DNA of 53,856 bases from Candidatus Avispirillum sp. (GCA_045636685.1 JAZTXZ010000085.1:1-53856); one strand, 5' to 3'; counted from the stretch's first letter, positions 30,938-49,000 are shown. Made by a program: numbers and translations. The notes: generated by a model not told the origin, from the sequence alone.

Positions 30938-32176
30938 CTATTGCTTACTACTTTTCCTGCGATGCATGAACAGATAAAGAGGTATTGCTGCAAGAGGGAA
31001 AAGCATTCCCACAAGCAGACCCGCCTTCATTCCCAGCTGTTCCGTAGTGAGCCCTATGGAAGACGCAATACTTACCACATCATCAGACTCCATAACAAAA
31101 TCCGTTATTACACCAACAAGCTGAGGGCCGACGGAAGCACCCAGATCTCCTCCTGCCGCCATCATAGCAAATATAAATACTCCGCCCGCAGGAAATCTAT
31201 CGGTTGCAACCACCAGGTTTCCCGGCCAGAGCATTGAAACGCAAAAGCCGCAAAGCCCGCAGGCAACAAGGCCCACTGCCGCAATATTGAAGACGGATGC
31301 AGTAAGATAGCATAAAGTTGCTCCCACAGCACCGAAAACGAGAACTCTGCCCATATTCTTTCCGATTTTTGAATACAAAGTTCTGCCAAGTCCAAGCATC
31401 GCCGCAAAGAACGTGACTCCAAGAATATCTCCCCAGACCTTCTCAATTCCAAGGGCGGCTTCAAGATAGCCTGAGCTCCACTGAGCCATTGTACACTCAG
31501 CGGCGCCTCCGAGAAATATGGCAAAAACGCAGGCCCACAGTCTTTTGTCTTTAAGATATGCTAAAGCCCCCGAAGTCTTTTCTTCTGTGCGAAGTGTTGG
31601 TATTTCGCTTGATGCAAAAAGAAAAGCTGAAACAAGCGGTATCAGCGCAAAGAGTGCTGCAAGTATCTGCCACCTTTCTTTACCAAACAAAAGCAGGAAC
31701 ACAGTTGCAACAGGGATAACACCTACAACTCCCCATGCGTATATCGAGTGGAGCTTGCTCATCTCTCGGTCCGGATCCGGTGACGGAAGGGCCGCGATCA
31801 CAGGGCTTATCAGTACCTCCCCAAGACCTGCCGCCGCTGAGAATATAACCGTTCCGATCACAAGTCCTGCATATACAGCCCTCGGAAACAGTATGGGACT
31901 CACCGCATAAAAGGCAAGCCCCACAACTGTCAACACCGGCATCAGCTTTACTGTTTTCGTTATATTGAATTTATGAGAAAAAAAGGAAAATATAAGATCA
32001 ACTATAAGCTGAGTTACGAAATTGACAAGGACTAACAGTCCCAGCTTAGAATATGATATCCCGTAAAGCTCTCTGAAGGTCAAAAACAAAAGAGGCGGAA
32101 GATTTCCAACTATAGACATTGAAATATTGGAAAAATAGCAGGCAAGCTTCAGCATTCTCATCTTATTTCTTGTCAT
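30938..32176 (-). CDS. MFS transporter
   Basis: ~12 hydrophobic helices with MFS-like spacing; ATGA coupling to the upstream phosphodiesterase gene. Confidence 0.85.
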   Translation of the reverse strand: MTRNKMRMLKLACYFSNISMSIVGNLPPLLFLTFRELYGISYSKLGLLVLVNFVTQLIVDLIFSFFSHKFNITKTVKLMPVLTVVGLAFYAVSPILFPRAVYAGLVIGTVIFSAAAGLGEVLISPVIAALPSPDPDREMSKLHSIYAWGVVGVIPVATVFLLLFGKERWQILAALFALIPLVSAFLFASSEIPTLRTEEKTSGALAYLKDKRLWACVFAIFLGGAAECTMAQWSSGYLEAALGIEKVWGDILGVTFFAAMLGLGRTLYSKIGKNMGRVLVFGAVGATLCYLTASVFNIAAVGLVACGLCGFCVSMLWPGNLVVATDRFPAGGVFIFAMMAAGGDLGASVGPQLVGVITDFVMESDDVVSIASSIGLTTEQLGMKAGLLVGMLFPLAAIPLYLFMHRRKSSKQ

Positions 32177-32946
32177 ACAAGAGACTTTCCTTCCCAATCG
32201 CGTACAATGGGAACTCCCATTACGGTTGCAACGGTGGGAGCAATATCAAGAAGACCGATATCTGATATCTCTTTACCCTTTTCAAAGCTATCACCCACAA
32301 ACATCATGGGAATAATCATATCCTCGGGAATATCTGCTCCGTGTCCTCTTGCGTGTCCGCCATGGTCTGCAGTAATAATAACAGTGTATCTGTCGCCTGC
32401 CGCTTCGATTACCCTTTTCACATTATCAATAGCGACACTGATATATTCAAGATACGTATCTGTCATCCATCCGACATCGTGACCGCCCTTGCTGTCTGTC
32501 TCAACCATATAGAGAAACACAAAGTCCGGATCTTTCTCATTTATATAGGAAAGCGCTCTGTCTGTAAGGACTGTATCGCTTGAAGGCTCAGAGTATGACT
32601 CTATATATTCTGCTCTGTCAAGGCTTCCCGGGCGTGATAAATCTCTCAGTTCCTCCCAACCGTAAAACATTCCGCAAACAGCTCCCGCGCCTTTCAAAGC
32701 TTCAAAAAGACCTGTTACAGGTCTCACGGGAGGAGTGTATGTATTTGAAAGTATTCCGTGTCTCTCGGGGGGGACGGAAAGGAACAATGACATATGGCAC
32801 GGAAGCGTTACTGAGGGATAGCAGGCGCTTGCGTTCATAGAATATGTTGACATTTTCAAAAGTTCTTCAACATATGTGTTACCGCAAGAGAGAAGGCCAT
32901 CCGGTCTCATTCCGTCTATTGATATCAAAATAACTTTATTTTTCAT
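32173..32946 (-). CDS. alkaline phosphatase superfamily / type I phosphodiesterase-nucleotide pyrophosphatase
   Basis: ISIDGMRPD, PSVTLPCH (Thr nucleophile), D..GGH, ITADHGG; no signal peptide. Confidence 0.85.
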   Translation of the reverse strand: MKNKVILISIDGMRPDGLLSCGNTYVEELLKMSTYSMNASACYPSVTLPCHMSLFLSVPPERHGILSNTYTPPVRPVTGLFEALKGAGAVCGMFYGWEELRDLSRPGSLDRAEYIESYSEPSSDTVLTDRALSYINEKDPDFVFLYMVETDSKGGHDVGWMTDTYLEYISVAIDNVKRVIEAAGDRYTVIITADHGGHARGHGADIPEDMIIPMMFVGDSFEKGKEISDIGLLDIAPTVATVMGVPIVRDWEGKSLV

Positions 32947-33256: not shown

Positions 33257-33538
33257 TTATTTCTTCTCGATCTTATAACCAAGTGCTACAATAAGCTTCA
33301 ATGTCTCCATTGCTGTATTGCGGTCATATTCTTTTTCAGAATCCGAAAGCTCTCCGTAAGGAACGAGGCACGGTGTTGTCTTTTTTATATCGTCTCGAAC
33401 CTCTCCGTAAGTCCAGCCCTCCTTTATTCTTCCTGCTGCCCAGTTTTCATGAACATTCTCCGCTATCTTTTCTGTCAGCAAAAGAAGCTCCTCGGGAAGC
33501 TTTACTCCTGCAGTATCCACAGGCTCAGGTCTATACAT
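33257..33538 (-). CDS. solo RyR (ryanodine receptor repeat) domain protein
   Basis: YRPEPVDT...LPEEL..L.EKIAENVHENWA..RIKEGWTYG..RDD.KKT.PCLVPY.EL..EKEYDR; start at 33538 with AAAGGAA RBS. Confidence 0.9.
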   Translation of the reverse strand: MYRPEPVDTAGVKLPEELLLLTEKIAENVHENWAAGRIKEGWTYGEVRDDIKKTTPCLVPYGELSDSEKEYDRNTAMETLKLIVALGYKIEKK

Positions 33539-33596
33539 ATTATCATTCCTTTCTTTATTTGATCTCACAGCTACAGTATATGATGCAATATCTAAA

Positions 33597-35804
33597 TTAA
33601 TCCTTATACTTTTCAAGAAATTCAAGCTTATCCCACGACTTTATATCACAGTGACGCTTTGCTCGGTCGCATCTTGTATCTCCGTATTTATAGCCGATGG
33701 TACGCATATATGCATTCCAGCGCATATGCTCCGTCTCTCTTCTTATATTGCAATTTTCACAGTCGCAGACATGACTTTTTTTAATTGCCAGGCAAGGATA
33801 CTTTGCTTCCATGCGCTCCTTATGTACTGCTCTGGCAATTGAGGAAAATCTGAAATACTCATATTCCATATACTTTTCGATCTCTTTGACTATTCTCTCA
33901 AGCACCTGATCTTTATCAAATTTATCAAAATCAACATACTCGTCCTGGGGCTTACGCTTTTTAAGAGATTCTAACTGATCCTTATTACAATTTCTGTACA
34001 TTTCTTTAAGAATATACCAATCTGCATCTCCCCAGTAGGGAACCTTTCCGTCGTAGTTCTCAAGGACCAATGTTCTGAAACTCTTATCATCCATATAACA
34101 ATGTCTCAGCTGACGCTGCTTTGCTACCCATTCCACATGCTGAGCAAAGGCGCTCTTTTCGATCTCCAGCTCGTCCTTTATAACTTTATATGAATACTGG
34201 GCCGAAATATTGCCTATAAATCTCACGTTATAGGGCTGATTACGATAATTTTTAAGATTAGATCCGGCATTACCGACAGCACCAAGGTTCTTAGCTTTTT
34301 TCTCGTCAAACACCACCGCGCATATCATGGGAGCATCATCAATAGTGCTTCCCTTTGCATCATCAGCGCTGACATTATGGATATTATCAAATATCCTTCT
34401 CAGATTCATCGCAACCTCGATGTTTTTATCGTCATCACCGAGAGTTACAAAGGCAAGCTGGGTTTCGGCAAGTCTTTTACCGCTTTCACCTTCCCTGAAT
34501 GCTTTTTCAAACTCTTCGGAGTAGCAGTCTATTCCCGTATAAAACCTTATACTGTATTTCGAATCTCCGTCGATAGTCCTGTCGTTGTTCTCTATGATAT
34601 CGGGGCACTGCATATAAAGCTCGCCCTTTGCACGATCTCCCTCAGAATTATCGAATACGTTTACCTGAAGCTCATAGCCTTTTTCCTGGAAAAACCAGAG
34701 AGACGTTTTCAAAAACTCCTTTCCGTATTCGCCGAGGCCGATTATCATAATGGAAATCTTTTTCGTCTGCTTTGCCATTCTTTCGATCGGTCCGAGTATA
34801 TACGTCTGATCACGGAGAGTTTTCTGAACAAGAAGATTATAGCTGTTGAACCGCTTTACCCTGAAGCCCTTATCAAGATCAACTATTTCATGAAGCCCCT
34901 TTTCCAGATCAAAAATCATTCCGGGAGAATCTGTTATTTTCTTTTTGGTTCTCTTATTAAATCTAAAGGGATTCTTGCCGAACGAGTCCATAACGTAGGC
35001 TGCGCCGGGACTGCCTGCAAAAACATACAGACTAATGTTTCTCTTTTTTGTATATATTTCTTTGATGGCAATTGCCTGAGAAAGATTTTCCGATTCGTCG
35101 TCTCCCATAAGGAATATCTCCATCCTTCTGAATTTTCCCTTCAGATTCAGATGCGCTACATCCTTTTTAAGACAAACCGCTCTAATATTATAAGCACGAA
35201 GTATGAGCTCATAATTTTCTTCCTCGTTCTTTTTAAAAACATCGGTGAATACTATCAGCGGCTTGATTTTTCTTTCTTTTTTGTATTCATCGACTACGCT
35301 TTCAGCCAGAGCCATGGAGCGCTCATTAAGACAGGACATTATACATATCTTTCTGAAGATGCAAGAGGAAAAGCGAATCTCATCTCTCAGATTTCTGAAC
35401 AGCGCAAGTACGTTTGTAAAGGTCAGGATAGGGGCTGCCACATATATCGCACATACAGAAAAGAGATATGTAACATATAGCCATTCTGCCTTAATACAAG
35501 CAGAGCAAGCTTCCTTTACAAGTTCATAATTCGTATCGAGAATAAATATTCTCAATGCATTATGAAATGCAAGAAGGCAAGGGCGCACATAGTAATTATC
35601 ATCAATATATTCGTTATGATACAAATATACCGGTATCAGCAAACATACAGCAGATATAAAAATACCAACTGTCAATATCTGAACATATGTAAATACCTTA
35701 TGCGCACGTTTTTTGTTCTTGCTTCTGATTATCGCCCACACTGAAAAAAATATTGCGAAAAAAACAGCAATACAAAAGCACAGGTAAAATACCTTTTGTT
35801 CCAT
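33597..35804 (-). CDS. channel-like membrane protein: TM module, tandem RCK/TrkA-N-like domains, C-terminal RyR domain
   Basis: 3 TM helices with an intervening LAFHNALRIF helix, IIGLGEYG Rossmann motif, VTLGDDDKNI, EHMRWNAYMRTIGY.YG..R...AKRH.DI..W. Confidence 0.75.
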   Translation of the reverse strand: MEQKVFYLCFCIAVFFAIFFSVWAIIRSKNKKRAHKVFTYVQILTVGIFISAVCLLIPVYLYHNEYIDDNYYVRPCLLAFHNALRIFILDTNYELVKEACSACIKAEWLYVTYLFSVCAIYVAAPILTFTNVLALFRNLRDEIRFSSCIFRKICIMSCLNERSMALAESVVDEYKKERKIKPLIVFTDVFKKNEEENYELILRAYNIRAVCLKKDVAHLNLKGKFRRMEIFLMGDDESENLSQAIAIKEIYTKKRNISLYVFAGSPGAAYVMDSFGKNPFRFNKRTKKKITDSPGMIFDLEKGLHEIVDLDKGFRVKRFNSYNLLVQKTLRDQTYILGPIERMAKQTKKISIMIIGLGEYGKEFLKTSLWFFQEKGYELQVNVFDNSEGDRAKGELYMQCPDIIENNDRTIDGDSKYSIRFYTGIDCYSEEFEKAFREGESGKRLAETQLAFVTLGDDDKNIEVAMNLRRIFDNIHNVSADDAKGSTIDDAPMICAVVFDEKKAKNLGAVGNAGSNLKNYRNQPYNVRFIGNISAQYSYKVIKDELEIEKSAFAQHVEWVAKQRQLRHCYMDDKSFRTLVLENYDGKVPYWGDADWYILKEMYRNCNKDQLESLKKRKPQDEYVDFDKFDKDQVLERIVKEIEKYMEYEYFRFSSIARAVHKERMEAKYPCLAIKKSHVCDCENCNIRRETEHMRWNAYMRTIGYKYGDTRCDRAKRHCDIKSWDKLEFLEKYKD

Positions 35805-35889
35805 AACACTCTCCAATCAGCCGACAACACATCGGCAATAACATCAGGCTCATATCTGTATGATAAAAGCACCTTCATAGGGTATCTTC

Positions 35890-38800
35890 TTACAGAACAA
35901 CCTCACTTATCTCTTTTCTGGTAAGATGGGTTTTCTTTATGAGCAGTTCGGCAAGCCTGTCCAGCTTTTCTTCATTGCTTCTGATTTCGGAAACCGCAAG
36001 AGAAAGTTGCTCTGACAGTATTTTATTAACTGCCGCTCTTACTTCTTTATCTTCCCTGGCAGTATCACCAAGAACACAAAGTCCGATACTTGGGTCCATT
36101 CCGAAATAGCATATCATTTTGTATGCAAGATCCGTAGCTTCCAGAAGGTCTCCCGATGCACCTGTCGATAAACCTTCGCTATCTCCGTAACAGACTATTT
36201 CAGCGGCTCTTCCTCCAAGGGCAGTTCTTATGCGGGAAAGCAGCTCATTTTTTGTATAAAGTCCCTTTCCCTCTCGATCACCATACTGCATATATCCCCC
36301 ATTATCCCCTCTTGCAACGATAGTTATGTATGAGGGTATCTCACCTGAAAGGGTGCATATGAGTCCGTGTCCCGCTTCGTGTCTTGCTATTCTGAGCAGC
36401 TGATCATCGTCTGTCTTTTTTTCGTCTCCGCCGAAAAACGTCTCGTATGCTTCATCGAATATAGACTCTGTTACCTTATCTTCATTATACCTCACAGATA
36501 TCCTTGCCGCAAGCTCAAATATTGAGCTGAGCTCTGCAAGGCTTCTTCCGGTAGAACGAACGGCAATATTTTCTACATACTCATCAGACAGCTCGTAGCA
36601 AACTCTCATGCCAAGCTTCTTTTTTATAAATTTTATCCTATCGTCCTTGGAGGGCAGATCTATCTTGATCCTTCTGTCAAACCTTCGCAAGAACGCACGG
36701 TCGAGGCATCTGGGGCTATCGGGATCAGCACTGAAGTTTGTTGCCGCAAGGACAAAAACAGGACGCGACGCATCTTTTTTAAAGCCATCCATTTCAGTAA
36801 GTAAAGCCGTCAGAATGCTGTCGTTACTGTTTTGAGACTCACCTGATCCGCGCTCCTTCGCAATTGCATCAATTTCATCTATAAAAAGCACTGAAGGCGC
36901 ATATTTTCTTGCAGTTCTGAAAAGTTCATGAACAGCTTCGGCGCCTTCGCCGGAGTACTTTTTAAGAAACTGATTACCCTCCGCCGCAATAAATGTTGCA
37001 TCAGATTCACCTGCCAGCGCCTTTGCAAGCATTGTTTTACCGGTTCCGGGAGGTCCGTAAAGGAGAACTCCTCTTGGATTTTCAAGTCCTTTTTTTCTGT
37101 ATTTCTTAGGATCCTTCAGGAATGATTCGAAGTGACGAAGCTCGTCCTTCGCATCCTCACCTCCTATAATATCATCAAATACAGTATCAGGCTTTGATAC
37201 ACCGCTGAGAACATTTCCGATATCCTCTGCATCCACGGCAGTCTCAAGCTTGAAATCAAAAAGGCTGATCTCTGCACTCATTTTATCATCGTTCAGCTTT
37301 TGGGATGTCTCATAGCTTACAAGCTTATTTGCTCTTGCAAGTCCCGTCATACTGCGTACAAAATGAATACCATCGCAAATTTTGCACACTTCATTGCAAA
37401 AACCGTCTTTTGATGAAGCAAGTGAGATCATATCAAATATGCCCTGCTTTGAAAAAGACCTGATCTCTTCCTCGGAATAAATATGTTCTTCTGTCTGCAA
37501 AAGGCATATCTGAACACGAGGATACTCCTCTTTAATATGCGAAAATATAACTCTTGCATCTGACTGTGCATCCTCTATATTAAGAAGAACATCAGTACTT
37601 CTTATGCCAAAGCTCATATCCAAAAGGACTGCCTTGATATCCCTCTCTTCAAAAATCGCGTCAGCCTCTTCAATGCTTTTTGCACCGAAAAAAGTATAAA
37701 GACTACCTTCAGCATTTTGTTTGCAAGCATCCAGAGTATTATTATCGGAAACAACAAGTATTTCCGATGTTTCTTTATTTCTGAAAAGTGAAACTATATT
37801 ATCATCATCGGGAAGCTCTGTTCCGATCTTTACCATCCTGATATCTTTTACTTTACTGCCTACACGCTCTGATGAAGCTAGGCTGTAAAGCTCATACAGC
37901 TCATCATCAATGAATGATCCAGCTCTTGCACTTACAGTTCTTGCATCGGTGCCAGCACCCTCCTCAAACAAAAGTGCTGTATAGACATCCTCTTCTATTT
38001 CCACCTTCACTCCGCTTGCCGCCTCAAAGCCCTCAGCTCTTTTTTGCATCTCCATTTTTGCGATCTTTCGCAGATCATTTGCGCTGATATGGTTAAACAT
38101 GACAACATTTTCCGACGCAAATCTTGAGCAAAGAGCACTTGGAAAGTAGGGAATATTTGTAACGGGATTGATATCCTTCTGAAGCGTCCTGAGTATGACC
38201 TTTCTTGATACCTGTGCAAGGTTTTCTGACTCTGCGCCTTCATAAAGCTGTTTTCCCGCATTTGTTGTAAATATGATCACCGTATTAAGAAAGGACACCT
38301 TATGATCGGTATAATTATCACGGAGATACCCTCCGTCAAGGATCTGCAAAAACAGATTAATAACTACCGGATGAGCCTTTTCCACTTCATCAAACAAAAG
38401 AACACTGCGGGGATTATCCTCAACAAAGCCTGTTACATTACCGCGACCGCCTCCCTTATACACTTTATCTGAGCCGCAGAATTCAAGATTGGATTCCTTA
38501 TCTGCATATTCGCTCATATCAAAGCGTTTAAACCTTATTTCATTTGCATAATCAAGAGAAGAAAGCACGTTCATAGCTTGGGCAGTCATTTCTGCAAGAT
38601 AAGTCTTTCCAACTCCGGGAGGGCCTGCAAAAAGGAAAACTGCACCGGGCTTTTTTCTCTTTTTTTCAGTAAGCTTTAAAACCTGTGAACGGTAATATCC
38701 CTCCGCCACGGTTCTTACAGCATTATCCTGACCTACAACTAATGAGGAAAGCATGTTCTGAAGGCTTTTTGTATCCTGCACAATGCTCTCAAGCGCGTTT

Positions 38801-39363
38801 CTTACTTCATCTGCAGTTTTCTTCTCCTCGAGTTCATCCTCTGTGTCGCATTCAAATTCATCTTCAAAGCAGTAAAATTCAGATTCTTCATCAAAGAAAT
38901 CATCGATCGGCAATTCCTCACTTAAATCCTCTTCAACAACAGTATCAGCAGGTACCTCAATATCCAAAACATTTTTCAGCAACTCAGAAGGGTCCTCTGC
39001 TATTGCTTTAGCAAGATGAACGGCACTGATCTCCTCACTGCCCTCAGCTTCAGCCGTTTTTTTAGCCGCTTCAAGCAATTTTTCCATATATTCCGTATCT
39101 GCAATTTTATTTGAGTCGGCTTTCTCATATAAACAAGCTAACAGCTTATTCCTATAGCTGTTATGACTCTTTTTATTATCGAGAAGAAGACTCAACGCAC
39201 AAATAAGCTCCTTATCGTTTGCACGGAGCTCTTCGAGGGAAAGAGTATTGAAAAGATCTATCATCTTTACGATAACCTTTTCGACCATGGGAATGGGCAA
39301 ACCGTTTATGTCTTCCGGATTTCTAAATCCCAGCAGCTCCGAAAGCAACTTGGAATACTTCAT
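35890..39363 (-). CDS. soluble fusion protease: Clp-N repeat, ClpB-D2-type AAA+, receiver-like domain, FtsH-type AAA+, M41 zinc peptidase
   Basis: EISAVHLAKAI; FLFAGPPGVGKT, RFDMSEY, LLFDEVEKAHP; ILVVSD...EEA...VLLD; GVLLYGPPGTGKT, FIDEIDAI, LLTEMDGF, RFDR; HEAGH, LGGRAAE, GASGD; no TM helix. Confidence 0.85.
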   Translation of the reverse strand: MKYSKLLSELLGFRNPEDINGLPIPMVEKVIVKMIDLFNTLSLEELRANDKELICALSLLLDNKKSHNSYRNKLLACLYEKADSNKIADTEYMEKLLEAAKKTAEAEGSEEISAVHLAKAIAEDPSELLKNVLDIEVPADTVVEEDLSEELPIDDFFDEESEFYCFEDEFECDTEDELEEKKTADEVRNALESIVQDTKSLQNMLSSLVVGQDNAVRTVAEGYYRSQVLKLTEKKRKKPGAVFLFAGPPGVGKTYLAEMTAQAMNVLSSLDYANEIRFKRFDMSEYADKESNLEFCGSDKVYKGGGRGNVTGFVEDNPRSVLLFDEVEKAHPVVINLFLQILDGGYLRDNYTDHKVSFLNTVIIFTTNAGKQLYEGAESENLAQVSRKVILRTLQKDINPVTNIPYFPSALCSRFASENVVMFNHISANDLRKIAKMEMQKRAEGFEAASGVKVEIEEDVYTALLFEEGAGTDARTVSARAGSFIDDELYELYSLASSERVGSKVKDIRMVKIGTELPDDDNIVSLFRNKETSEILVVSDNNTLDACKQNAEGSLYTFFGAKSIEEADAIFEERDIKAVLLDMSFGIRSTDVLLNIEDAQSDARVIFSHIKEEYPRVQICLLQTEEHIYSEEEIRSFSKQGIFDMISLASSKDGFCNEVCKICDGIHFVRSMTGLARANKLVSYETSQKLNDDKMSAEISLFDFKLETAVDAEDIGNVLSGVSKPDTVFDDIIGGEDAKDELRHFESFLKDPKKYRKKGLENPRGVLLYGPPGTGKTMLAKALAGESDATFIAAEGNQFLKKYSGEGAEAVHELFRTARKYAPSVLFIDEIDAIAKERGSGESQNSNDSILTALLTEMDGFKKDASRPVFVLAATNFSADPDSPRCLDRAFLRRFDRRIKIDLPSKDDRIKFIKKKLGMRVCYELSDEYVENIAVRSTGRSLAELSSIFELAARISVRYNEDKVTESIFDEAYETFFGGDEKKTDDDQLLRIARHEAGHGLICTLSGEIPSYITIVARGDNGGYMQYGDREGKGLYTKNELLSRIRTALGGRAAEIVCYGDSEGLSTGASGDLLEATDLAYKMICYFGMDPSIGLCVLGDTAREDKEVRAAVNKILSEQLSLAVSEIRSNEEKLDRLAELLIKKTHLTRKEISEVVL

Positions 39364-39380: not shown

Positions 39381-41168
39381 TTATCTTGCTCCGACCTTTG
39401 AATCCTTACGTTTTTCATCCTCATCGAGGCCCGAAAACTCAACAAGGTCATGATGCATTTTGGCAAGGTCATTCCTTGATTCTTTGTTATGAGAACCGCT
39501 ATATATATATCCCTCTGATCTCATATAAGCATTCCATCTGCGGTGCTCCAGCTTCTCTATAATATCACGCTCACTGTCCGTCAGTTCTTCTTCCTTTTTG
39601 TATGCGCCGGGAATATTGCACTCTACCCTGGCCTTCATATGTACCGCAGATGCAACGGAAGAGCTGTAGTTATACTCATATCCCCAGAATTCCTCCTCCT
39701 TGCCCCACTTAAGATGGCGGGCAAGAGCCTCTGCCTCTACTTCGGAATCGATAATGACGTTCTCCGTTCTAACGTCGCAGATAAAATCAATATCATATGC
39801 CTGGCCTCTGTAATTTACGATCCCTTCAAGAGCTTCCCTTGCATCACGGCTATACACAACCGTTTGAATAACGGGTTTTGCTCCTATTCTCTCAAACAGC
39901 ATTCTCAGATTTACTGCAGTTTTAATATTATCCTTATCGTTGCCCAAGGTTACCATAACGTAGGTTGTATCCTTGAGCTTCATTATTTCATCGGCAAACT
40001 GCTTTGTATCAACAGAAATACCGGAATTTATGTTGATAGTATACTCAGCCTCATCCGGAATACTTACTCCGTTATATCTTTTAGACATAAGCTCAGGACA
40101 CAGAGCAGAAAATTTTTCCTTTGCCAAGGGATCTTTATCAAAGGCATCTATCTTTATTTTGTAACCGTCCATCTGGCAATACCATGAAAGAGATTTCACC
40201 ATCTCAGTTCCGTATCTGCCCATACCAACGACCACCGCGCCGATATGCTTCATATTATCCTCAGCCTCTTTGGCACTGCTGAAGATCTTTTGGCCGTCAT
40301 TATACAAAAGATGGGTTATGAGGCTTCTGACCTCATTTATGCGTCTTACCTTCAGGGCGCTTTCTTTATTGCCGTTAAGCAAAAGCTCGCTCTCTATCCT
40401 TGTCGTAAAAACATAAAGTCTTGTATTTTCACGATCCTTGTATATATTTCGCAATTTAAGTGCCTGAGATATATTTTCGGCTTCATCGCTTCCCATTACA
40501 AACAGATACATGGCAGTATTTTTTATTTTTCTTCTCAGATTAACAGTTAAAATATCGCCTTTGAAGCATACGGCACCAAGTGCTCTTGCACGCTGGATCA
40601 GCTCGTAGGTATCCTCTTCCTCTTTTTCAAAAACATCTGTAAATACAATGAGCACCTTTTTATGGTTTTTCTCAATATCCTCAGCAAGTGAAAGAGTTTT
40701 TTCGTTCAGCTCTGAGAAGATATAAGTATCCCTGAAAGGAAAGCACTTATATTTCAGATATGATGTTATATTCTTGAAAAAGGAAAGCAAAAATCCAAAT
40801 GTCAGAATGGGGGCAAGGAGGAGAAGCAAATATGCCAGTGCCGTATAAGGCTCACAGAGCCACTCAAGCCACTCAGGCATATTAGCAACACCGTCTCCGA
40901 TAATGCTATAATCATCATCAACAGAAAAAGCTCTGATAGCATGATGGAATGCAAGGATTAATGATTTTATAGTATCGAAGCTGTCGCCTCTGTATTTATC
41001 AACATATACAGGTAAATTGAGAAAAACGGAAGAGGCCGCCCATCCTCCAAACAGAACATTTACAGGATTAACTCTGACACGGACCTTCTTGAAAAACAGA
41101 ATAGCAGAAAAAACTATAGCTTCCAAAAAAAGGCATAATGCCAACACAAAACAAAAAAGCCAGATCAT
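39381..41168 (-). CDS. second channel-like TM-RCK-RCK-RyR protein (paralog of 33597-35804)
   Basis: 3 TM helices, LAFHHAIRAF, VVGMGRYG, VTLGNDKDNI, LEHRRWNAYMRSEGY...AKMHHDLV.F..L...EKRKD. Confidence 0.78.
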   Translation of the reverse strand: MIWLFCFVLALCLFLEAIVFSAILFFKKVRVRVNPVNVLFGGWAASSVFLNLPVYVDKYRGDSFDTIKSLILAFHHAIRAFSVDDDYSIIGDGVANMPEWLEWLCEPYTALAYLLLLLAPILTFGFLLSFFKNITSYLKYKCFPFRDTYIFSELNEKTLSLAEDIEKNHKKVLIVFTDVFEKEEEDTYELIQRARALGAVCFKGDILTVNLRRKIKNTAMYLFVMGSDEAENISQALKLRNIYKDRENTRLYVFTTRIESELLLNGNKESALKVRRINEVRSLITHLLYNDGQKIFSSAKEAEDNMKHIGAVVVGMGRYGTEMVKSLSWYCQMDGYKIKIDAFDKDPLAKEKFSALCPELMSKRYNGVSIPDEAEYTININSGISVDTKQFADEIMKLKDTTYVMVTLGNDKDNIKTAVNLRMLFERIGAKPVIQTVVYSRDAREALEGIVNYRGQAYDIDFICDVRTENVIIDSEVEAEALARHLKWGKEEEFWGYEYNYSSSVASAVHMKARVECNIPGAYKKEEELTDSERDIIEKLEHRRWNAYMRSEGYIYSGSHNKESRNDLAKMHHDLVEFSGLDEDEKRKDSKVGAR

Positions 41169-41233: not shown

Positions 41234-42487
41234 TTATTTTTTATTCCAAAGATTATCCATCGCACGTCTGAACTCAGAATCATCCATGTGGCAGATATCA
41301 CTTATGACAGTGATTCCCATATCACTGGCCCTCTGCCTGATATGTCCTTCATTTGCGGCTCCGTTCAAGGCGCTTGCAACAAGTATTTTCTTTGCATATT
41401 CTGAACCGAACTTTTCTGCAACAGAATTAAGTTTAAACAGTTCTTCAACTTCAACATGTCCGTTTTTGCACGAAACAAATATAGGAATGATACCCTTCAT
41501 AAGAATGGCATCGACTTCATTTTTCGTATCTCCTCCAAGGAGGTCTGCCTCAGCATTTCCGTCCCAGTCAAGAGTAACGCCGGTCATTACATCGTTATAT
41601 ACAGGTTTATCCTCTTCATCGCACAGCTCTCTTGTAACGGCATATACCTTCATTTCAAGAGCCTGTCCCGACTTGATGAGACACTTCTTCACCTGCTCGT
41701 TTTTATATGTTACAGTGAGTTTTTCACTGTCTACGGAAAATGACTTAATAAGTCCCGCATTCAGAAGCTTATAGAATATCCATTTGTAGAACACGTAAAA
41801 GCCCTTTTGACCTTTGAGGTTTTCCGTTATCTTCTCGATTGATGCAGTAGTGGTAAGAGGATCGTCGTCATGTTCTCTGTAAAGCTCCGCTACATCAAGC
41901 ACTCTTGTCTGATAATTCCACTGCTTGCAGTTTGAGCTGCAGATATCCCACATAGCATGGATATCTCTGATAAAATACTTATCCATATTCCATATATGTG
42001 TTGTGCCTTCTACATCATCATCATATATTATATCGCCGCCATACATACGTATATTTTCGCGAACAGACATATAAGGAAGCTCATCACCCATAATGGTTTT
42101 TCCGTCTCCATCGCAGTCGATAAGCTTATTGTACTGGATATTGAAACGATGCACCTGTATTCCTCTGTCCTTATATCTTTCGCTGATGATGCCGACAGCG
42201 GCAATATAAAGCTCGTCACCGCCGGTGAGATCAAAGGCGCAGTCCTCATAAGTATCAAGTATCTCCTCAAGAACTTTGACAATGCCCTTGAGATCGTTTT
42301 TATTGACAGCTTTATGCAAAAATTCCGTATCGTATCCTCTGTCTCTCAGCACGCTCTCATATCTTTCTGCATGCTTTTTCAAAAGCTTGGACTTATCTCC
42401 TATCAGCACAACCCTCTCGGGTGGGTTGATAAGTGTCGCACAAACATTTTCTATGGTTACTTTATCAAAAAATTCAATATACGTCAT
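41234..42487 (-). CDS. CARF plus PD-(D/E)xK nuclease protein, DUF1887 / Card1-Can2-like
   Basis: N-terminal Rossmann-like fold with FDLTGG motif; C-terminal GQALE...NEVD.....IFVSCKNG...ELFKL. Confidence 0.78.
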   Translation of the reverse strand: MTYIEFFDKVTIENVCATLINPPERVVLIGDKSKLLKKHAERYESVLRDRGYDTEFLHKAVNKNDLKGIVKVLEEILDTYEDCAFDLTGGDELYIAAVGIISERYKDRGIQVHRFNIQYNKLIDCDGDGKTIMGDELPYMSVRENIRMYGGDIIYDDDVEGTTHIWNMDKYFIRDIHAMWDICSSNCKQWNYQTRVLDVAELYREHDDDPLTTTASIEKITENLKGQKGFYVFYKWIFYKLLNAGLIKSFSVDSEKLTVTYKNEQVKKCLIKSGQALEMKVYAVTRELCDEEDKPVYNDVMTGVTLDWDGNAEADLLGGDTKNEVDAILMKGIIPIFVSCKNGHVEVEELFKLNSVAEKFGSEYAKKILVASALNGAANEGHIRQRASDMGITVISDICHMDDSEFRRAMDNLWNKK

Positions 42488-42750
42488 CTTTTCAATCCCA
42501 TTTGATTAATTCTGTTTTCAACTTCTTCTGCAATTTCATCAGACATGATCTGCATAAAACGTTTTACATTCATTTTTTCAACAGAGAGATCTATCTCATC
42601 ATAGATATCCTGATATGCATTGACTTTATCAGTACACTTACGGCACACTCTCATATGTGTATTTACATCAGAAATAAGCTTCAGGCTTTGTTCATTAAGC
42701 TCTTCCACAGATACAAACTCAATGATCTCTTCAATGCTTAGATGCTTCAT
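42484..42750 (-). CDS. small zinc-binding anti-sigma (ZAS / zf-HC2) protein
   Basis: N-terminal HL..E.I..F plus HMRVCRKC (HxxxCxxC); overlaps the upstream sigma-like gene; no TM. Confidence 0.7.
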   Translation of the reverse strand: MKHLSIEEIIEFVSVEELNEQSLKLISDVNTHMRVCRKCTDKVNAYQDIYDEIDLSVEKMNVKRFMQIMSDEIAEEVENRINQMGLKR

Positions 42751-43579
42751 TATCAATTACCTGCCTGATCTTTTTGTTTATTTTGTTTAGCCAATCGCTT
42801 ATTGATGAAGTTGCACCCTTTTGCATAAAGCAATCCCGAAACAAAGTCTCCCCCAAAAGCATGCCGTCATCCTGCGTTTTTTTCAGACGCGCATCAATTT
42901 TTGTAAAGTTACCCTTTGTAAATCCGAGCCATGAATACTTTGTTTCATGTACAAGAAGGCGAAAGGCTTTGTTTCTCATGCTTACAAGAGGTCTGTCACC
43001 AAATGTATCTGCAAGCTTTTTTGTTGCATCTTTTCTCGTTGCACCTGTTTCCATCATGAGGTATGAATGGAGAATCCATGTAAGAGACTTGTACGGAGCC
43101 GTGCTCATGTCTGCCACTGTGAAAAAGCACTTTTTCAAAAGGTTTACCACATTTTCAGAGGGCTTCTCTATTCCGCGCAACAGTCTGAGATAATACCATA
43201 CATCACCCTGCAAAAACTTATTCTTATCCGTCAGTTCCCCTGTGAGCTTTCTTTTGTAATCGATAAGAGTTCTTACTCCAAGCGTTCTCAGCCAAGGTCT
43301 GAGACCGTCAACATCATCATTAACAGGACCGAAAGGTCCGTCCTTTTTCACATACCTGTTAAGGATCTTTTTAGCCACTTTGGAACGGATCTTCTGCATG
43401 ATTTCGTCAAAATGGTCGTTTGTCCTGAGCAGTCTGTCGTCATAGCATTTGAGCTTAATGTATTTATATAAAACTGCTTCCGCTATTCTCAGCGCAGTAT
43501 CTGTAACCGCCCCGTCGCTTTCCAGAAGCTCATTGACCATCATATAGTATTCTTCATCAGTATACTCTCTTTGTGTCAT
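42731..43579 (-). CDS. divergent ECF-type sigma factor-like protein
   Basis: sigma2-like DEIMQ...LRPWLRTLGVRTLIDYKRK; C-terminal sigma4-like SSISDWLNKINKKIR; coupled to a ZAS gene. Confidence 0.6.
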   Translation of the reverse strand: MTQREYTDEEYYMMVNELLESDGAVTDTALRIAEAVLYKYIKLKCYDDRLLRTNDHFDEIMQKIRSKVAKKILNRYVKKDGPFGPVNDDVDGLRPWLRTLGVRTLIDYKRKLTGELTDKNKFLQGDVWYYLRLLRGIEKPSENVVNLLKKCFFTVADMSTAPYKSLTWILHSYLMMETGATRKDATKKLADTFGDRPLVSMRNKAFRLLVHETKYSWLGFTKGNFTKIDARLKKTQDDGMLLGETLFRDCFMQKGATSSISDWLNKINKKIRQVIDNEASKH

Positions 43580-43751: not shown

Positions 43752-44945
43752 TTAATCGGAATTTATTCTGATGCACTCACCGAAGGTAGCTGTTACCTCG
43801 CTATCCACAATTATCCATATCACAGGTACATTCAATGATACGCTCTCATCCGGAAATTCCGCATATCCATCTGTTATAATTATAATTCCCGCAGGCAGTT
43901 CATCTTCAAAGTACCCGTGCATACTGTCAAAAATCACAGAAAAACTTGTTCCTCCTCCGCCCACAGGCTCAATGGAAGAAAGCTTTTTTATACTGTCAAA
44001 TTCAACAGGCTCGGATACTTGAGTGTCGAAAAAGGAAATATAACCCGAAAGATTGCCTATCTGATCTATAGCAGATCCGATCTCGCTCATAGCCTCCGAT
44101 ATAGCTTTATTTGAAATTGATCCCGATGTATCAATAAGAAACCACAGTTTTTCTATCTTACCGCCATCCTTGTTTTCAGAAAAAGAAGGAAGGATCACAT
44201 CCCCGCCGAATCTGTTATCCGGAGGAATAAAATCATAATCGTACCTATCGTGCTGAATAAAATCGTGAAGCACCTGCCTCCAGTCGATCTTATTGCGCTT
44301 GGTTATCCCCTCTATAAATCTTTTGAGTCCGCAGGGGATGCCCGAGCCGTTTTTACCGGATGATTTTGACGCATTTGAAATATAAGTATTCCATGTTTCC
44401 TCAAGTATGCTTCCGTAAATATCGATGCTGCCCCAAACGCTGTGATCATCAAGAGAGTAATTCCCTTCGGCAGCATCCGGCAAACCCATAGTATTCCCCA
44501 CGCTTTTCTGATTGAGAAGCATAAGATATACCTGCTCAGCGCTATACTCTCTGCCCTCCTTGCCATCGGGAGCAAGGTGCATTACCTTCCACCCGTCTAT
44601 GAGCATCTCCTTTTCTCCCATGGCATCAAGGATCACTGAATTAACTACTATATCACATGCGATATTATAAAGCAGATGCATTTTCCCTTCCGCGCGTGTA
44701 CAATGCTTCAGCACACAGTGCATCAGCTCATGCAGCATTACGAAACTGAGCTCCCTGTCACTCAGCCGCGCAGCAAAATCAGGATCGAATACGATACGCC
44801 TCATATCCGTAAATGCAGTTTCACAATCGGCAAATCCGAAAGGCAGATGCATCAAAAGCCTACCGAAAAAGGGATACCTGTCCAGCATATCTGCCCTTAT
44901 TGTTATCAGACGATTTGATATTTTCCTCATGATATCGCGATTCAT
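43752..44945 (-). CDS. DUF2201-type metallopeptidase plus vWA domain protein
   Basis: PFFGRLL, TAFTD, HELMH, NIACD..VN, LIDTSGSI (MIDAS), GGGGTSF, IITDG. Confidence 0.88.
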   Translation of the reverse strand: MNRDIMRKISNRLITIRADMLDRYPFFGRLLMHLPFGFADCETAFTDMRRIVFDPDFAARLSDRELSFVMLHELMHCVLKHCTRAEGKMHLLYNIACDIVVNSVILDAMGEKEMLIDGWKVMHLAPDGKEGREYSAEQVYLMLLNQKSVGNTMGLPDAAEGNYSLDDHSVWGSIDIYGSILEETWNTYISNASKSSGKNGSGIPCGLKRFIEGITKRNKIDWRQVLHDFIQHDRYDYDFIPPDNRFGGDVILPSFSENKDGGKIEKLWFLIDTSGSISNKAISEAMSEIGSAIDQIGNLSGYISFFDTQVSEPVEFDSIKKLSSIEPVGGGGTSFSVIFDSMHGYFEDELPAGIIIITDGYAEFPDESVSLNVPVIWIIVDSEVTATFGECIRINSD

Positions 44946-46072
44946 ATTCCACCGCCTGCACTATATATATCGGAAATGCTGTCCTTATTTCTTGTTACCC
45001 ATGTCTGGAAGGTATAGCATTTCATCAGCTTTTCCGAAAGGCCCTCAATAAGGAGAACATCCCTGACAAAGACTACTGCAAAATCCTTCGGAAATCTGAA
45101 CACATAATCACATACATTTGTTATATTCTGAGGAGTTATACTGTTCTTCTTATCCCTCATAGCGCTGACAAGTCCCTGGGTCAACGCATACATTACATCA
45201 TGGGTTTTAGGGTACTCTCTGCAACGTCCGTTCATAATATCATTTACAGAGGGAATAGAAAGACAACCCTTACAAAATGCACAGAACTCTATAGCAGTAT
45301 CGTTCCCTACACAGGCTGCTATCAGCATCTGTTTTTCCGAGGTTATTATTGATTGATTTCTCAGTATCCTGCTGACATACTGCCATGATCTTGGAGTTGG
45401 ATATGCAAGATCAGAACTTTCAGGCTCAACGCAGAGACGGCTCTCGTCCATTCCGATAAAAGCGATGACCATTTCCGAAATTCCGTTTTTCACCGCCCAT
45501 TTCTTCCATGACGCAAAATCAGCCTTTACGTTAAAATGCATAAGTCGGTTACAAAGTGCTTTGGGCATCTTATAGCTGACGCTCATATCCGTTACTCTGT
45601 TACCTGCCGCAATAACAAAGCAATTATCGGGCAGGCTGTGCTCTCCGATTTTTCTGTCAAGGCATAACTGATATGCTGCCGCCTGTACCTGCTGGGGCGC
45701 AGCTGACAGCTCATCCAGAAACAGTAAGTTGATCACTCCGCGGGAAGGGTCCATTTCAAAGATACGGGGCTTCAGCCAATTTGCAAGCTTATGCTCCGTA
45801 TCTGCTACAGGTACCCCTCGCAGATCAATAGGCGAAAACAAAAGAAGCCTTACATCCGTGATATTCACCTTTACATCATATTCCTTTTCAAGCTTTTCGG
45901 CAAGCTGATAGATTGCCTGGGATTTTCCGATTCCCGGTGCGCCCCATAAAAACGGTGTGGTCAGCTCCTTCATGGGAATACGGTCCTCGATTGCCTCTCC
46001 TATCACGATTTTCAAAAGACTTATTACCTTCTCCACGGTCGTACCGGGAATATTTAACTCCATATCACTCAT
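44942..46072 (-). CDS. MoxR-clade AAA+ ATPase
   Basis: LWGAPGIGKS, DVRL, DLRGVP, LFLDEL, AAGNR, ALCNR, PTPRSW; ATGA-coupled on both sides. Confidence 0.9.
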   Translation of the reverse strand: MSDMELNIPGTTVEKVISLLKIVIGEAIEDRIPMKELTTPFLWGAPGIGKSQAIYQLAEKLEKEYDVKVNITDVRLLLFSPIDLRGVPVADTEHKLANWLKPRIFEMDPSRGVINLLFLDELSAAPQQVQAAAYQLCLDRKIGEHSLPDNCFVIAAGNRVTDMSVSYKMPKALCNRLMHFNVKADFASWKKWAVKNGISEMVIAFIGMDESRLCVEPESSDLAYPTPRSWQYVSRILRNQSIITSEKQMLIAACVGNDTAIEFCAFCKGCLSIPSVNDIMNGRCREYPKTHDVMYALTQGLVSAMRDKKNSITPQNITNVCDYVFRFPKDFAVVFVRDVLLIEGLSEKLMKCYTFQTWVTRNKDSISDIYSAGGGI

Positions 46073-49000
46073 GACGCTTTATTCTCCTTTGCATCCTCTT
46101 CAAGTTTTTTATCAATTGTTTCAAGCTCACGCATCAGGCCTTCGATCTTCTGCAAATAAGGATTTTCTCTTTCAATATCCTCCTCTGCTTCTTTCATCTG
46201 CTGTTTGAGACGTTCCATCTCATCTGAGTATCTTATTGCCCGTTCTGCAAGATGATCAAGAATATAGTCTATCGCCTTCGTACATCCAACAGGTGTTTTG
46301 TCCTGATCGATCTCGCAAACGTAGCTTCCTCCATGCGAGCTTTTTATTATAATATAGGGTGATTCCTCCCTCATCTTTGCAGGCAATACGATGGTAAAGC
46401 CTTGATAATCTGCAAATATCCTCTCATATACGATTCCGACATTTTCAGAAACGGCAAGAAGTAGCTCCTCTCCGAATGCCGTTCTCTCCTCATTGGGAAC
46501 AGGCTCCTTAAGCTTCGTATATACATTAAAATCCTTGCGTGCAATATCCGCAAGAGATCTCAGCTTTTCTATCTTTGTGGGAGTTTCGGTTATCACGCAC
46601 CTCAGATCCTGAAGCTGACGCTGCCTTTCTCTTGAAGCTATTTTTGTTCGCTCAAGCAAATTAGAGACCTCCACTCTCTTTTTAATCAGAGGATTGCCTA
46701 TTGCAAGTGCCTTTACCTCTGCATATGAAAGGACCGCATCGGCAATATCCGAAATATCTCTCGTAGCTGATGTTCCGCTGAGAAATGAGCTGATAAACTT
46801 CTGCTTATTTTCAAGGAGCTGCCAGGAATATGCATCAAAGCTACCTTCGGTTATATATCTGAAAATAAATACTTCTTCGGAAGTATTTCCCTTGCGAAGT
46901 ATTCGGCCCTCTCGCTGAACCATATCTGCAGGGCGCCACGGCACAGACAGATGATGAAGTGCCACAAGTCTCTCCTGCACGTTTACTCCCACACCAAGCT
47001 TTGCCGTTGATCCGATGACCACTTTAAGTTTCCCACTGTTCATATCTGCAAAAAGCTTTTCCCTTGCCTTTTCCGTTGTTGCATCGTGAACATATGCTAT
47101 TTCCTCGGTCGCAACACCGTATCTTTCAAGCTTTTCACTAAGGCAGTCGTATACATTAAAGCCCTCCTTAGGCGTACCGATATCACAAAACACTACCTGT
47201 GTTGACTGTGGAAATCTGCGATATATATCAACGACCTTTGATGCGCAGGCATCTATTTTGGTTGTTTCAAAAGCATAGACCGGGATCGAAGGATCAACAA
47301 GTCTTATATCAAGAGCCGCTTTTCTTCCGTCTGTTGTCACCTTTAAAAGGTTGTCCTCTGTGCGTTTGATCTTTTTCAGCCGTATAAGCTCTGTACGCTC
47401 TGACAGACTCTTAATATACTTATCCTGCTCCGCACTTTTCTTAACACAGACATCCGTATATCCTGAGAAAAAAGGAATACCTTCCTCATCTTCATCAATA
47501 CGATGAAAATCACAGATCTGAGCAAAAAGGCTCATAAGCTCACCGAGATTATGAAACGAAGAAAAGCGTGTTACTGTTCGAAGACTTGAGCTGTTTGCGT
47601 CCACATCACATTCAATTGCAGTTTCCCTTTTGCCAAAGGTATTCACCCATGAATCAAAAGAGTTTATTCTGTGGAGCTTAAGGGTCTCAGGCTGAAGATA
47701 CATCTGAAAAGCAAAGAGATCGGCAAGACTGTTTGTCAGCGGAGTACCTGTTGCAAAGATCACTCTGTCAACAAAATGTACCTTCTCAAGCATTTCACGA
47801 CACTTCTTGCTTGAATTACCTCCAAGTCCCACAATATTGTCAGTACGGGAGCCTATGGGGATATTCTTATAGTTATGGGCTTCATCCACAACAAGGGTAT
47901 TTATACCGAGAGAATCAAAAGTGATCCATTTTGATTCCTTAGCTTCAGATATAAACTTTGAAAGTTTTTTTGAGAGAGCACCTGCTTTATTATCAAGAGC
48001 TGCCTTTTCATATTTATCACTTGTATTGAAAGCTGCTCTTTTCAGCTCATCTATTTCTCGGGTATACTTATTAATATAATATTTTTTGCTCATGACGATC
48101 ATATCAAAGCTGCTGTATGCCATATATATGGCAACATAATCTCCGCAGGCGATCTTTGCCAGAACACTGTTCCTTCGCTCAGGAGTAAAATCCTTGGAAT
48201 ATACTGCAAGAATATTATCCTTGGGATAAAGATATGTATGGGCATCAACAGTTGCCTTGAGCACATTATTGGGCACAACCACAAGATTTTTTTGGCTCAG
48301 TCCAAGTCTTTTCAGCTCATGTACGGAGGATATCATCTCATAGGTCTTACCTGTGCCAACATCATGGGCAAACACAGTATTTGTTCCTGAAAGAAGAACT
48401 CTTGCGATGGCATTTCTCTGATGAGGATAGAATTTCACATCCGGATTAAGATCGGGGAGGGAAAGAAATCCACCGTCATATGCTGTGAAGGTATATCCAA
48501 CAAAAGCTTCGTTATAAAAGCTTTCAAAACGAAGCACACGGCTTCTGTCAGCATATACCCAATCGCGAAAGGCAGCTATGATCTCCTTTTGCCTATCCTG
48601 GGCTTCAACAGTTTTGGATTTGTTCAAGATCTGCTCATATTCAAAATATCCGTAAGCTCCTGTGTTTTTGGGAATATAGTCATATACCTTTACGGTTTTG
48701 GCATTCAATGTATCCTCAATTATATCAATAGCAGTGAGATACTGTTTTATTGTTCTTGTATTATAAGGATCGATATTTCCGCGAACACCGTATGTTATAG
48801 TATTGAGAACAGACTGCTTTGCGCTCTCGGTAGCAGTGATCTTCCAACGCCCAAGCTCCCTTGAAAATGTAACTGAGGGCGCCTTTGACAAACGGAGAAG
48901 GTATTTAATAAATTCTGAGTATTCCTTTTCGGGAATCCACGCAGCACCAAGACTGATATGAATATCGCCGATATTTATATATTCGGGAATGATCTTTCTC

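Follow-up and report, generated by a model that had tools for sequence, protein, structure and literature searches.

Can parts of a Clp/Hsp100 unfoldase and of FtsH be combined in a single soluble protease and, if so, what would such a protein be for? This question is raised by one gene in a contig of Candidatus Avispirillum sp. (GCA_045636685.1, JAZTXZ010000085.1:1-53856; henceforth the window, i.e., the whole stretch of 53,856 nucleotides that we analysed). A preliminary description, made from the sequence alone, had proposed that the minus-strand gene at positions 35890 to 39363 encodes a chimeric protease in which two AAA+ modules of different clades are joined through a receiver-like (REC-like) domain. 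Here we show that the gene encodes an intact soluble chain joining a Clp N-domain, a D2-type AAA+ module, a receiver fold, an FtsH-type AAA+ module and an M41 zinc peptidase. The protein is a member of an undescribed accessory family and a new architectural variant among AAA+ proteases, and its gene neighbourhood points to nucleotide-signal-based conflict systems.

An intact chain with Clp-type and FtsH-type modules

The gene and the parts of its product, listed from the N-terminus with the evidence for each in brackets, are as follows:

35890..39363 (-): protease gene P0001, 1157 amino acids (aa), in the order ClpN, D2-type AAA, REC-like, FtsH-type AAA, M41 (open reading frame and domain matches)
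38956..39363 (-): predicted Clp/Hsp100 N-domain, a double four-helix repeat, residues 1-136 (AlphaFold model and fold search)
38806..38955 (-): acidic linker, residues 137-186 (composition)
37864..38775 (-): Clp D2-type (HCLR clade) AAA+ module, residues ~197-500 (Pfam AAA_2, NCBIfam, invariant residues)
37336..37773 (-): predicted receiver-fold (beta-alpha)5 domain, residues 531-676 (AlphaFold model, Foldseek, VIA-align)
37240..37326 (-): conserved long beta-hairpin, residues 680-708, between the REC-like domain and the second AAA module (model strands 184-194 and 200-212)
36433..37194 (-): classical-clade FtsH-type AAA+ module, residues 724-977 (Pfam AAA, FtsH_fam)
35899..36399 (-): M41 zinc peptidase, residues 989-1155, with H995 E996 xx H999 and D1072 (Peptidase_M41 profile positions 8-191 of 191)

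The reading frame is uninterrupted over its 1157 codons, and an origin by chance of a frame with such a length and such hidden Markov model (HMM) scores is far beyond what can be expected: Pfam detected AAA_2 at residues 239-387 (E = 2.5e-36), AAA at 766-902 (E = 1.1e-48) and Peptidase_M41 at 989-1155 (E = 4.1e-29). No membrane segment was found in the 1157-aa protein by a hydropathy scan (no 19-residue window reaches a mean hydropathy of 1.6). Across 38 aligned members of the family, the residues of the nucleotide-binding and zinc sites are invariant, namely both Walker A/B pairs, the sensor motifs, HExxH and D1072. The motifs lie where the preliminary description had put them: EISAVHLAKAI at residue 111, the first Walker A (GPPGVGKT) at residue 247 (nucleotides 38625-38602, the range of 38603-38626 given earlier being one base off), RFDMSEY at 280, DEVEKAHP at 325, VLLD at 579-582 (nucleotides 37629-37618), and, with coordinates that proved exact, the second Walker A (GPPGTGKT) at residue 770 (nucleotides 37056-37033) and HEAGH at residue 995 (nucleotides 36381-36367). 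All five of its domain calls (ClpN, acidic linker, D2-type AAA, pseudo-receiver, and FtsH-type AAA with M41) were confirmed through HMMs or through AlphaFold models combined with fold searches.

The C-terminal part is a complete FtsH-type AAA and M41 unit. Residues 724-1152 matched positions 156-598 of the 598 in the NCBIfam profile FtsH_fam (TIGR01241; E = 3.2e-98), with a score of 330 bits that lies below the family cut-off of 600, and solved FtsH chains were the matches that covered the AAA module and the peptidase together (4ww0_A residues 12-457, E = 3.4e-69). The AAA module has its Walker A lysine at K776, Walker B at D829-E830, a pore-loop region at F799..G805 and a second region of homology at R893 R894 .. 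R897; the GPPGTGKT, DEID and R893/R894/R897 columns are invariant in the 38 sequences, as are H995, E996, H999 and D1072 in the peptidase. By analogy with FtsH, we take D1072 to be the third zinc ligand.

The first AAA+ module is of the Clp D2 type. Specifically, residues ~181-468 matched the D2 part of the ClpA, ClpB and ClpV profiles in NCBIfam (E about 1e-41), and the residues K253 (Walker A), D325-E326 (Walker B), TTN 366-368, the Y302 loop and DAR 473-475 are invariant among the 38 sequences. No D1 module precedes it: the AAA_2 match at 239-387 is the only one of its kind, and the ClpA and ClpB alignments reach their D2 parts only. No coiled-coil middle domain was detected either, the ClpB profile match excluding the middle-domain region and no search having been aimed at a coiled coil or at a ClpP-docking loop.

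Ahead of this module, the preliminary description had recognised a Clp N-repeat, for which the sequence signal is weak (Pfam Clp_N, E = 0.055). The AlphaFold model of residues 1-136 (60 aligned rows) has a predicted local distance difference test (pLDDT) score of 89.6 and eight helices. VIA-align placed the N-domain of ClpB (1khy_A) at the top of its list (Z 10.1, root-mean-square deviation (rmsd) 3.1 Å, 109 residues aligned), and its top 17 rows are all Clp/Hsp100 N domains, after which Z falls to 4.7; Foldseek with the same model returned no row at E ≤ 0.001, though its top rows were mostly Clp N domains. Judged by its modelled fold, this region is a complete Clp N-domain rather than one repeat. 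The linker that follows is indeed very acidic, with Asp or Glu at 24 of its 50 residues, the highest content among the 38 family members (linker-region median 26%).

Pfam has no family for the middle of the protein (residues 451-720), even at E ≤ 10. The AlphaFold model of residues 497-726 (63 rows; pLDDT 88.5, predicted template modelling score 0.80) consists of a (beta-alpha)5 unit and then a long beta-hairpin. All 43 Foldseek rows listed for the receiver model (ranks to 50) are receiver-domain entries, the best being NtrX (5m7n, E = 2.3e-6), while VIA-align aligned 129 of 130 residues to a LuxO-type receiver (3cfy_A, Z 15.3, rmsd 2.6 Å) and had receiver domains in all of its top 50 rows. 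The REC fold proposed earlier is thus borne out, and so is the suggestion that this domain keeps the receiver aspartate and lacks the lysine. The beta3 aspartate D582 lies where model strand 80-85 ends and is shared by all 16 family members compared, which come from three clades. The same 16 sequences have no conserved column for the Lys that follows beta5 or for the Thr/Ser that follows beta4, nor is the acidic pair expected behind beta1 conserved, with one Asp there in part of the rows only. After D582 stands a family-specific loop (L594 N595 .. D598 .. S601 .. R604) that is invariant in the closer clade. On this model, the middle domain is a pseudo-receiver without the canonical phosphorylation site. 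The hairpin comes after an NK(L/V) motif, whose lysine K680 (K184 of the modelled fragment) is invariant in 16/16 sequences.

Homologues and distribution of the family

If the fusion is real, it should be found elsewhere. In a word-indexed search, 119 of the best 120 matches were near-full-length homologues (1003-1314 aa, 46-54% identity, 84-100% coverage), of which the named ones come from Clostridia bins and carry only the label ‘AAA family ATPase’. One cluster at 90% identity holds 25 near-identical copies from separate metagenome contigs. Since the full-length fusion recurs in many independent assemblies, an assembly chimera is excluded. More broadly, the gene might be an artefact of some kind (a chimera, a pseudogene or a mis-joined reading frame), as could be suspected from the fragmented host bin (2.15 Mb in 138 contigs, 86.7% complete). 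Against this, the frame is unbroken, homologues align from residue 1 in many independent assemblies and every catalytic motif is intact, and we regard the chance of an artefact as negligible.

To see how far the receiver variant extends beyond this architecture, we can turn to its own profile, which was compared with 1.84 billion representatives of 50%-identity clusters. It matched 399 proteins at E ≤ 0.001 (302 at 1e-10 and 122 at 1e-30), and only those proteins, not the response-regulator superfamily. Among the best 150 of the 399 matches, 96 carry two Walker A motifs and HExGH, and 86 are 1000-1350 aa long (17 are longer and 47 shorter, many of the latter probably fragments), which argues that the variant is essentially confined to this architecture. 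Four of the five long members scanned have an N-terminal Ser/Thr kinase fused to the same core, and two of these also have a TPR repeat. Viral contigs scanned with the REC-domain alignment gave 25 pattern matches, none of them a relative.

Neither NCBIfam nor our literature searches offered a description of the family: the former has no specific model for it, and in the latter we found no paper describing a ClpN/D2/receiver/FtsH/M41 protein. We thus found no sign that the architecture had been characterised before.

The host genome also encodes a canonical FtsH (a 685-aa frame), ordinary Clp ATPases and a further paralogue with the same complete domain architecture (34% identity, 1126-1132 aa; contig C138:4323-7310, locus L103 3954-7334), directly upstream of which lies a YbjN-family gene (checked with Pfam). 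Sampling of other genera of the family turned up the REC-like region in 5 of 80, and a sample of 399 other Clostridia turned it up in 4; the only other species of the genus (97% complete) gave no match. The protease gene is accessory and patchily distributed. Members of the family are common among Clostridia from human-gut and rumen metagenomes.

Two further features of individual loci may be recorded here. In locus L131 (107-7878), the protease is present twice in tandem, at full length (1155 and 1184 aa), and the two copies are separated by a HAD_SAK_2 phosphatase-type gene. Antisense open frames of 1375 and 1851 codons lie opposite the protease homologues of L001 (9641-13768) and L002 (7541-13096), probably as an effect of composition.

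The gene array in the window

Within the window, the protease belongs to a packed minus-strand run of genes, given here in the order of transcription with the protease standing between the two membrane proteins; the last entry is the gene that lies beyond the run on its downstream side:

42731..43579 (-): 282-aa protein heading the array (no Pfam, NCBIfam or PADLOC match)
42484..42756 (-): 90-aa H-x3-C-x2-C protein, anti-sigma-like (motif in the translation; no Pfam match)
41234..42487 (-): CARF and PD-(D/E)xK-like protein (Can2/Card1-like), 417 aa (PADLOC CARF4--CARF_PDDEXK, E = 2.5e-29, full length)
39381..41168 (-): membrane protein, 595 aa, with a Rossmann/RCK-like middle and a RyR-like C-terminus (upstream neighbour)
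33597..35816 (-): membrane RCK-like/RyR-like protein, 739 aa, second member of the 595-aa family (same cluster and HMM; three hydrophobic segments; downstream neighbour)
33257..33625 (-): stand-alone RyR-domain protein (Pfam RyR PF02026, E = 9.8e-37, full profile)
32173-32946 (-): type I phosphodiesterase/nucleotide pyrophosphatase-type gene, 257 aa (310 bp downstream of the RyR gene)

The 595-aa membrane protein has hydrophobic segments at residues 1-19 and 104-122 and a TrkA_N match (E = 7.1e-5) just under the cut-off. Pfam found nothing at E ≤ 0.01 in the last ~170 residues of either membrane protein; their likeness to RyR is based on hhalign, which aligned the RyR profile with the C-termini of the membrane RCK-like family (probability 92.2%, E = 5.9e-7), and on an Atlas lead. 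For the stand-alone RyR protein the true start is probably M30, i.e., 33257-33538 and 93 aa, and homologues 61-73% identical to it adjoin the protease in five other loci. The CARF protein additionally matched Pfam Card1_endonuc (E = 1e-3) and, over its CARF part, Can2 (7bdv_A, E = 0.022). The 282-aa protein is possibly sigma-like. It and the 90-aa protein have one homologue each, both in locus L137 and in the same positions (the 282-aa gene just upstream of the 90-aa gene); that locus continues with two YbjN genes where the CARF gene stands in the window, and then a membrane protein, the protease and another membrane protein.

Upstream of the array, at 43752-49365 (-), are a SNF2-type helicase (1098 aa, with weak DrmD/BrxH-like PADLOC matches), a MoxR-type AAA_3 ATPase (376 aa) and a DUF2201 metallopeptidase/vWA-like protein (397 aa), the AAA_3 and DUF2201/vWA-like genes occupying 43752-46072, 4.4 kb upstream of the protease. 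We considered these three genes as part of the system and rejected them, as phmmer found no homologues of them elsewhere among the fetched loci; they resemble an independent MoxR-vWA module beside the array. Elsewhere in the window, a 1303-aa protein with cohesin and dockerin domains (23351-27262, minus strand) is a cellulosome-type scaffold, in keeping with a fibre-degrading Ruminococcus-like organism.

Partner genes across loci

To ask which neighbours recur with the protease, loci were gathered from genome contigs, whole genomes and metagenome contigs, open reading frames were called, and HMMs of the window neighbours were scanned over all loci. Dereplication at 90% identity removed 27 near-identical loci, and loci with a protease frame shorter than 900 aa were also removed (among them L012 and L138, both with a membrane RyR-like neighbour). 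In a quick IQ-TREE tree of 38 rows, the window falls in a clade of 25 loci supported by 99% in the Shimodaira-Hasegawa-like approximate likelihood ratio test (SH-aLRT). At least one of four partner families was found within the fetched flank in 20 of these 25 loci, distributed as follows:

Membrane RCK-like/RyR-like partner: 9/25 clade loci
Stand-alone RyR partner: 6/25 clade loci
Can2-like CARF partner: 6/25 clade loci
YbjN-family partner, often in tandem: 10/25 clade loci

A RyR-type partner of either kind is present in 13 of the 25, YbjN genes were identified by Pfam matches above the cut-off, and the genes of the module are often less than 100 bp apart or overlapping. The preliminary description had linked the protease to its flanking membrane proteins, as possible anchors or substrates, and the conserved adjacency in nine clade loci supports such a link. 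Furthermore, in the family sample, RyR profile matches were found in 6/6 protease-carrying genomes vs 3/75 others, which should be read as a pattern rather than a statistic since related genomes are not independent.

Other clades and clusters have neighbours of their own. In the paralogue clade, a YbjN gene lies upstream in 5 of 6 rows (Pfam check on the host paralogue only). The third clade is flanked by large proteins, the one scanned being a Ser/Thr kinase-TPR-propeller protein. TIR genes adjoin the protease in L099 (TIR-TPR and TIR-MORN) and in the L108 cluster, and immediately upstream of the protease in the commonest human-gut cluster are genes for a TIR-STAND-TPR and a DUF5640 protein. 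In two loci from two genera (L094 5350-10557 and L097 1465-6654), a protein of ~1730 aa with a transglutaminase-like core lies upstream of the module, preceded by a shared 300-400-aa protein.

As a separate observation, on which none of our conclusions depends, a phosphoesterase adjoins the module in four loci, and its superfamily differs each time: beside the gene at 32173-32946 in the window, L100, L131 and L136 have calcineurin-like, HAD-type and histidine-phosphatase types.

Proposed role and alternative explanations

Given that RyR, CARF and YbjN partners recur and that TIR or kinase-TPR proteins adjoin some loci, we hypothesise that the protein is a soluble three-tier AAA+ protease that provides the proteolytic step, as effector or as reset device, for accessory conflict modules sensing nucleotide signals. 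This is the reading that we consider most likely, with about an even chance of being right. Under this hypothesis, the protease would form a hexamer with the Clp D2-type ring atop the FtsH-type ring, feeding the M41 chamber. Adaptors such as ClpS and MecA, as well as phospho-arginine, bind Clp N domains, and entries of this kind are among the Foldseek rows for the N-domain model; the N-domain here may likewise take substrates or adaptors, as in ClpA, ClpC and ClpV. The pseudo-receiver, which would not be phosphorylated in the canonical way, may instead work in front of the second ring as a coupler, either allosteric or for assembly, much as receivers do in NtrC-type activators. In the window, the module would run from the 282-aa gene (43579) through the RyR gene (33257). 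The substrates or recruiters of the protease would be the membrane proteins of RyR type on either side of it, the CARF protein or the small anti-sigma-like protein. The trigger might be a bound adenine-nucleotide signal, either cyclic ADP-ribose (cADPR)-like or a cyclic oligoadenylate. Gating by the REC-like domain, coaxial stacking of the rings and a role of the membrane proteins as anchors or substrates are likewise inferences. The nucleotide-signal logic proposed for the RyR partners draws on phage RyR proteins that bind or cleave 2'/3'cADPR, according to a preprint (PMC13232231).

Several observations weigh against a role in conflict modules. None of the four partners was found in 5 of the 25 clade loci, the commonest human-gut cluster included, and some flanking genes are ordinary ones (MFS transporters, FtsK, Hsp90). 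The clade count itself comes from a quick IQ-TREE run, the careful search being unfinished. In all 7 CARF members, SxK replaces the expected (D/E)xK nuclease motif, which casts doubt on their own activity. PADLOC has no specific model for the protease and gives generic AAA matches only. As to the source of a signal, the window contains no signal-making enzyme, and Cas10 was not found in five carrier genomes (80-100% complete), where TIGR02578 matched below its cut-off and over the HD part only in 4/5 and PF22335 matched in 0/5. TIR_2 matches number 13, 9, 9, 9 and 5 in the five carrier genomes, many for genomes so small; the host's 13 are all on contigs other than that of the window. A complex prediction for the N-domain, REC region and RyR protein scored 0.00; it gives no verdict and is not used here as evidence either way.

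The main rival is that the protease serves stress proteostasis: a cytosolic disaggregase-protease would clear misfolded or damaged proteins together with YbjN-type co-chaperones, with the RyR/RCK membrane proteins as reporters of energy or ion status and not of immunity. The union of a ClpB-like N-domain and a D2 module with an FtsH-type protease would suit such a task. YbjN proteins are moreover the most widespread neighbours, found also beside the host's second paralogue, an Hsp90 gene lies nearby in L135, and E. coli YbjN is reported to be tied to stress phenotypes (PMC3181261). A general stress function sits poorly, however, with a gene as patchy as this one (5/80 genera and 4/399 Clostridia), in a host that already has a canonical FtsH and Clp ATPases; its partners, too, are of sensor type (CARF, RyR), with TIR or kinase-TPR proteins in some loci. 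On balance, we think this explanation somewhat unlikely.

Two narrower explanations could hold for this locus as special cases. One would make the protease a membrane-tethered substitute for FtsH: the RCK-like/RyR-like proteins would dock it and so restore the topology of FtsH in trans, with membrane proteins, possibly those same ones, as substrates. Canonical FtsH is membrane-anchored, and membrane RyR-like genes flank the protease on both sides in the window and L137, with 7 more clade loci having one on a single side, but 16 of the 25 clade loci have no such membrane gene and the loci of CARF type have soluble partners only, which makes this quite improbable in our view. The other would cast it as an anti-sigma protease, with a signal sensed by the CARF protein leading to degradation of the 90-aa H-x3-C-x2-C protein, release of the 282-aa protein and a change in transcription. 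Such a chain from signal through anti-sigma degradation to a freed regulator is the logic of the CalpL-CalpT-CalpS system, and anti-sigma factors are common substrates of AAA+ proteases; both here and in L137 the array begins with the 282-aa and 90-aa genes, and the CARF gene comes next here. Yet only 2 of the examined loci have the pair, Pfam models of sigma and anti-sigma factors match neither protein, and L137 has no CARF gene. We hold this version to be very doubtful.

Returning to a role in conflict modules, a more specific form of it is that members of the family serve as effectors in bacterial immune modules of a new class, in which RyR or CARF partners would read an adenine-nucleotide signal (of the TIR cADPR type or a cyclic oligoadenylate) and recruit or release the protease, the pseudo-receiver coupling partner binding to activation of the ring. 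We put this forward as speculative and consider it unlikely as it stands. If true, RyR domains would act in host immunity as sensors and not only in phage counter-defence, and the outputs of immunity would include regulated proteolysis of the FtsH type. Whichever role applies, the linkage to RyR, CARF, YbjN, TIR and kinase-TPR proteins offers a testable place to ask what bacterial RyR domains sense in their own cells and whether nucleotide immune signals feed regulated proteolysis, and a structure of the protease would show how two unlike rings cooperate and what the receiver fold does between them.

Comparison with known systems

We found no described AAA+ protease that joins an HCLR-clade Clp ring, a receiver fold and a classical-clade FtsH ring with its peptidase in a single soluble chain; each part nevertheless has close counterparts. 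Over their whole length, the last 430 residues can be aligned with FtsH profiles and with solved cytosolic regions of FtsH, and the AAA module, second region of homology, HExxH and conserved Asp are all present. Canonical FtsH is anchored in the membrane, whereas the protein described here lacks the N-terminal membrane helices and the periplasmic domain (its profile match starts at position 156 of 598) and has a Clp N-domain, a D2-type AAA and a receiver fold ahead of its FtsH part. With Clp/Hsp100 proteins (ClpA, ClpB, ClpC, ClpV) it shares the N-domain fold and an AAA_2 module with Walker A/B and a DAR sensor-type motif. It differs from them in lacking D1, in the reversed order of clades (an HCLR-type ring first and a classical-clade ring second) and in having its peptidase fused rather than supplied as a separate ClpP.

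NtrC-type activators (NtrC1, NtrX, LuxO, HupR) likewise have a receiver fold directly N-terminal to an AAA+ module, and their receivers are among the best structural matches to the middle domain. By contrast, the protease has no Pfam REC signal, no conserved Lys/Thr and no DNA-binding domain, its AAA+ module is of FtsH type rather than sigma-54 type, and no histidine kinase is encoded nearby.

Among predicted conflict systems, the nearest in content are the MoxR-vWA ‘FtsH ternary systems’ (Kaur et al. 2020; PMC7159879). In that paper, their third protein is described as having two FtsH-type AAA+ modules, the first inactive, and ClpN repeats are reported in some of these systems. An FtsH-type AAA+ protein with two AAA+ modules is thus common to both, and a MoxR and a vWA-like gene lie near the protease in the window. 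Set against that description, however, the first module here is of Clp D2 type with intact Walker A/B, the MoxR/vWA linkage was found at no other locus examined, and the taxa named there are deltaproteobacteria, actinobacteria and planctomycetes, as opposed to Clostridia here.

The partner genes have counterparts of their own. In a 2022 survey, YbjN/T3SS-type peptide-binding chaperones are predicted in ADP-ribose-linked conflict systems (PMC9503650). For the phage RyR-domain (PF02026) proteins, the preprint cited above gives H75, W78, H100 and D117 as the ligand or catalytic residues of RyDEP (PMC13232231). Six stand-alone RyR proteins from our loci share an invariant H..W and an Asp at the spacing of RyDEP H75/W78/D117 (+3, +42), as judged by comparing residue numbers rather than by an alignment. 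Unlike the phage RyDEP of that account, the RyR genes described here are chromosomal, bacterial and linked to a protease rather than phage counter-defence genes, and their products are predicted to bind a ligand.

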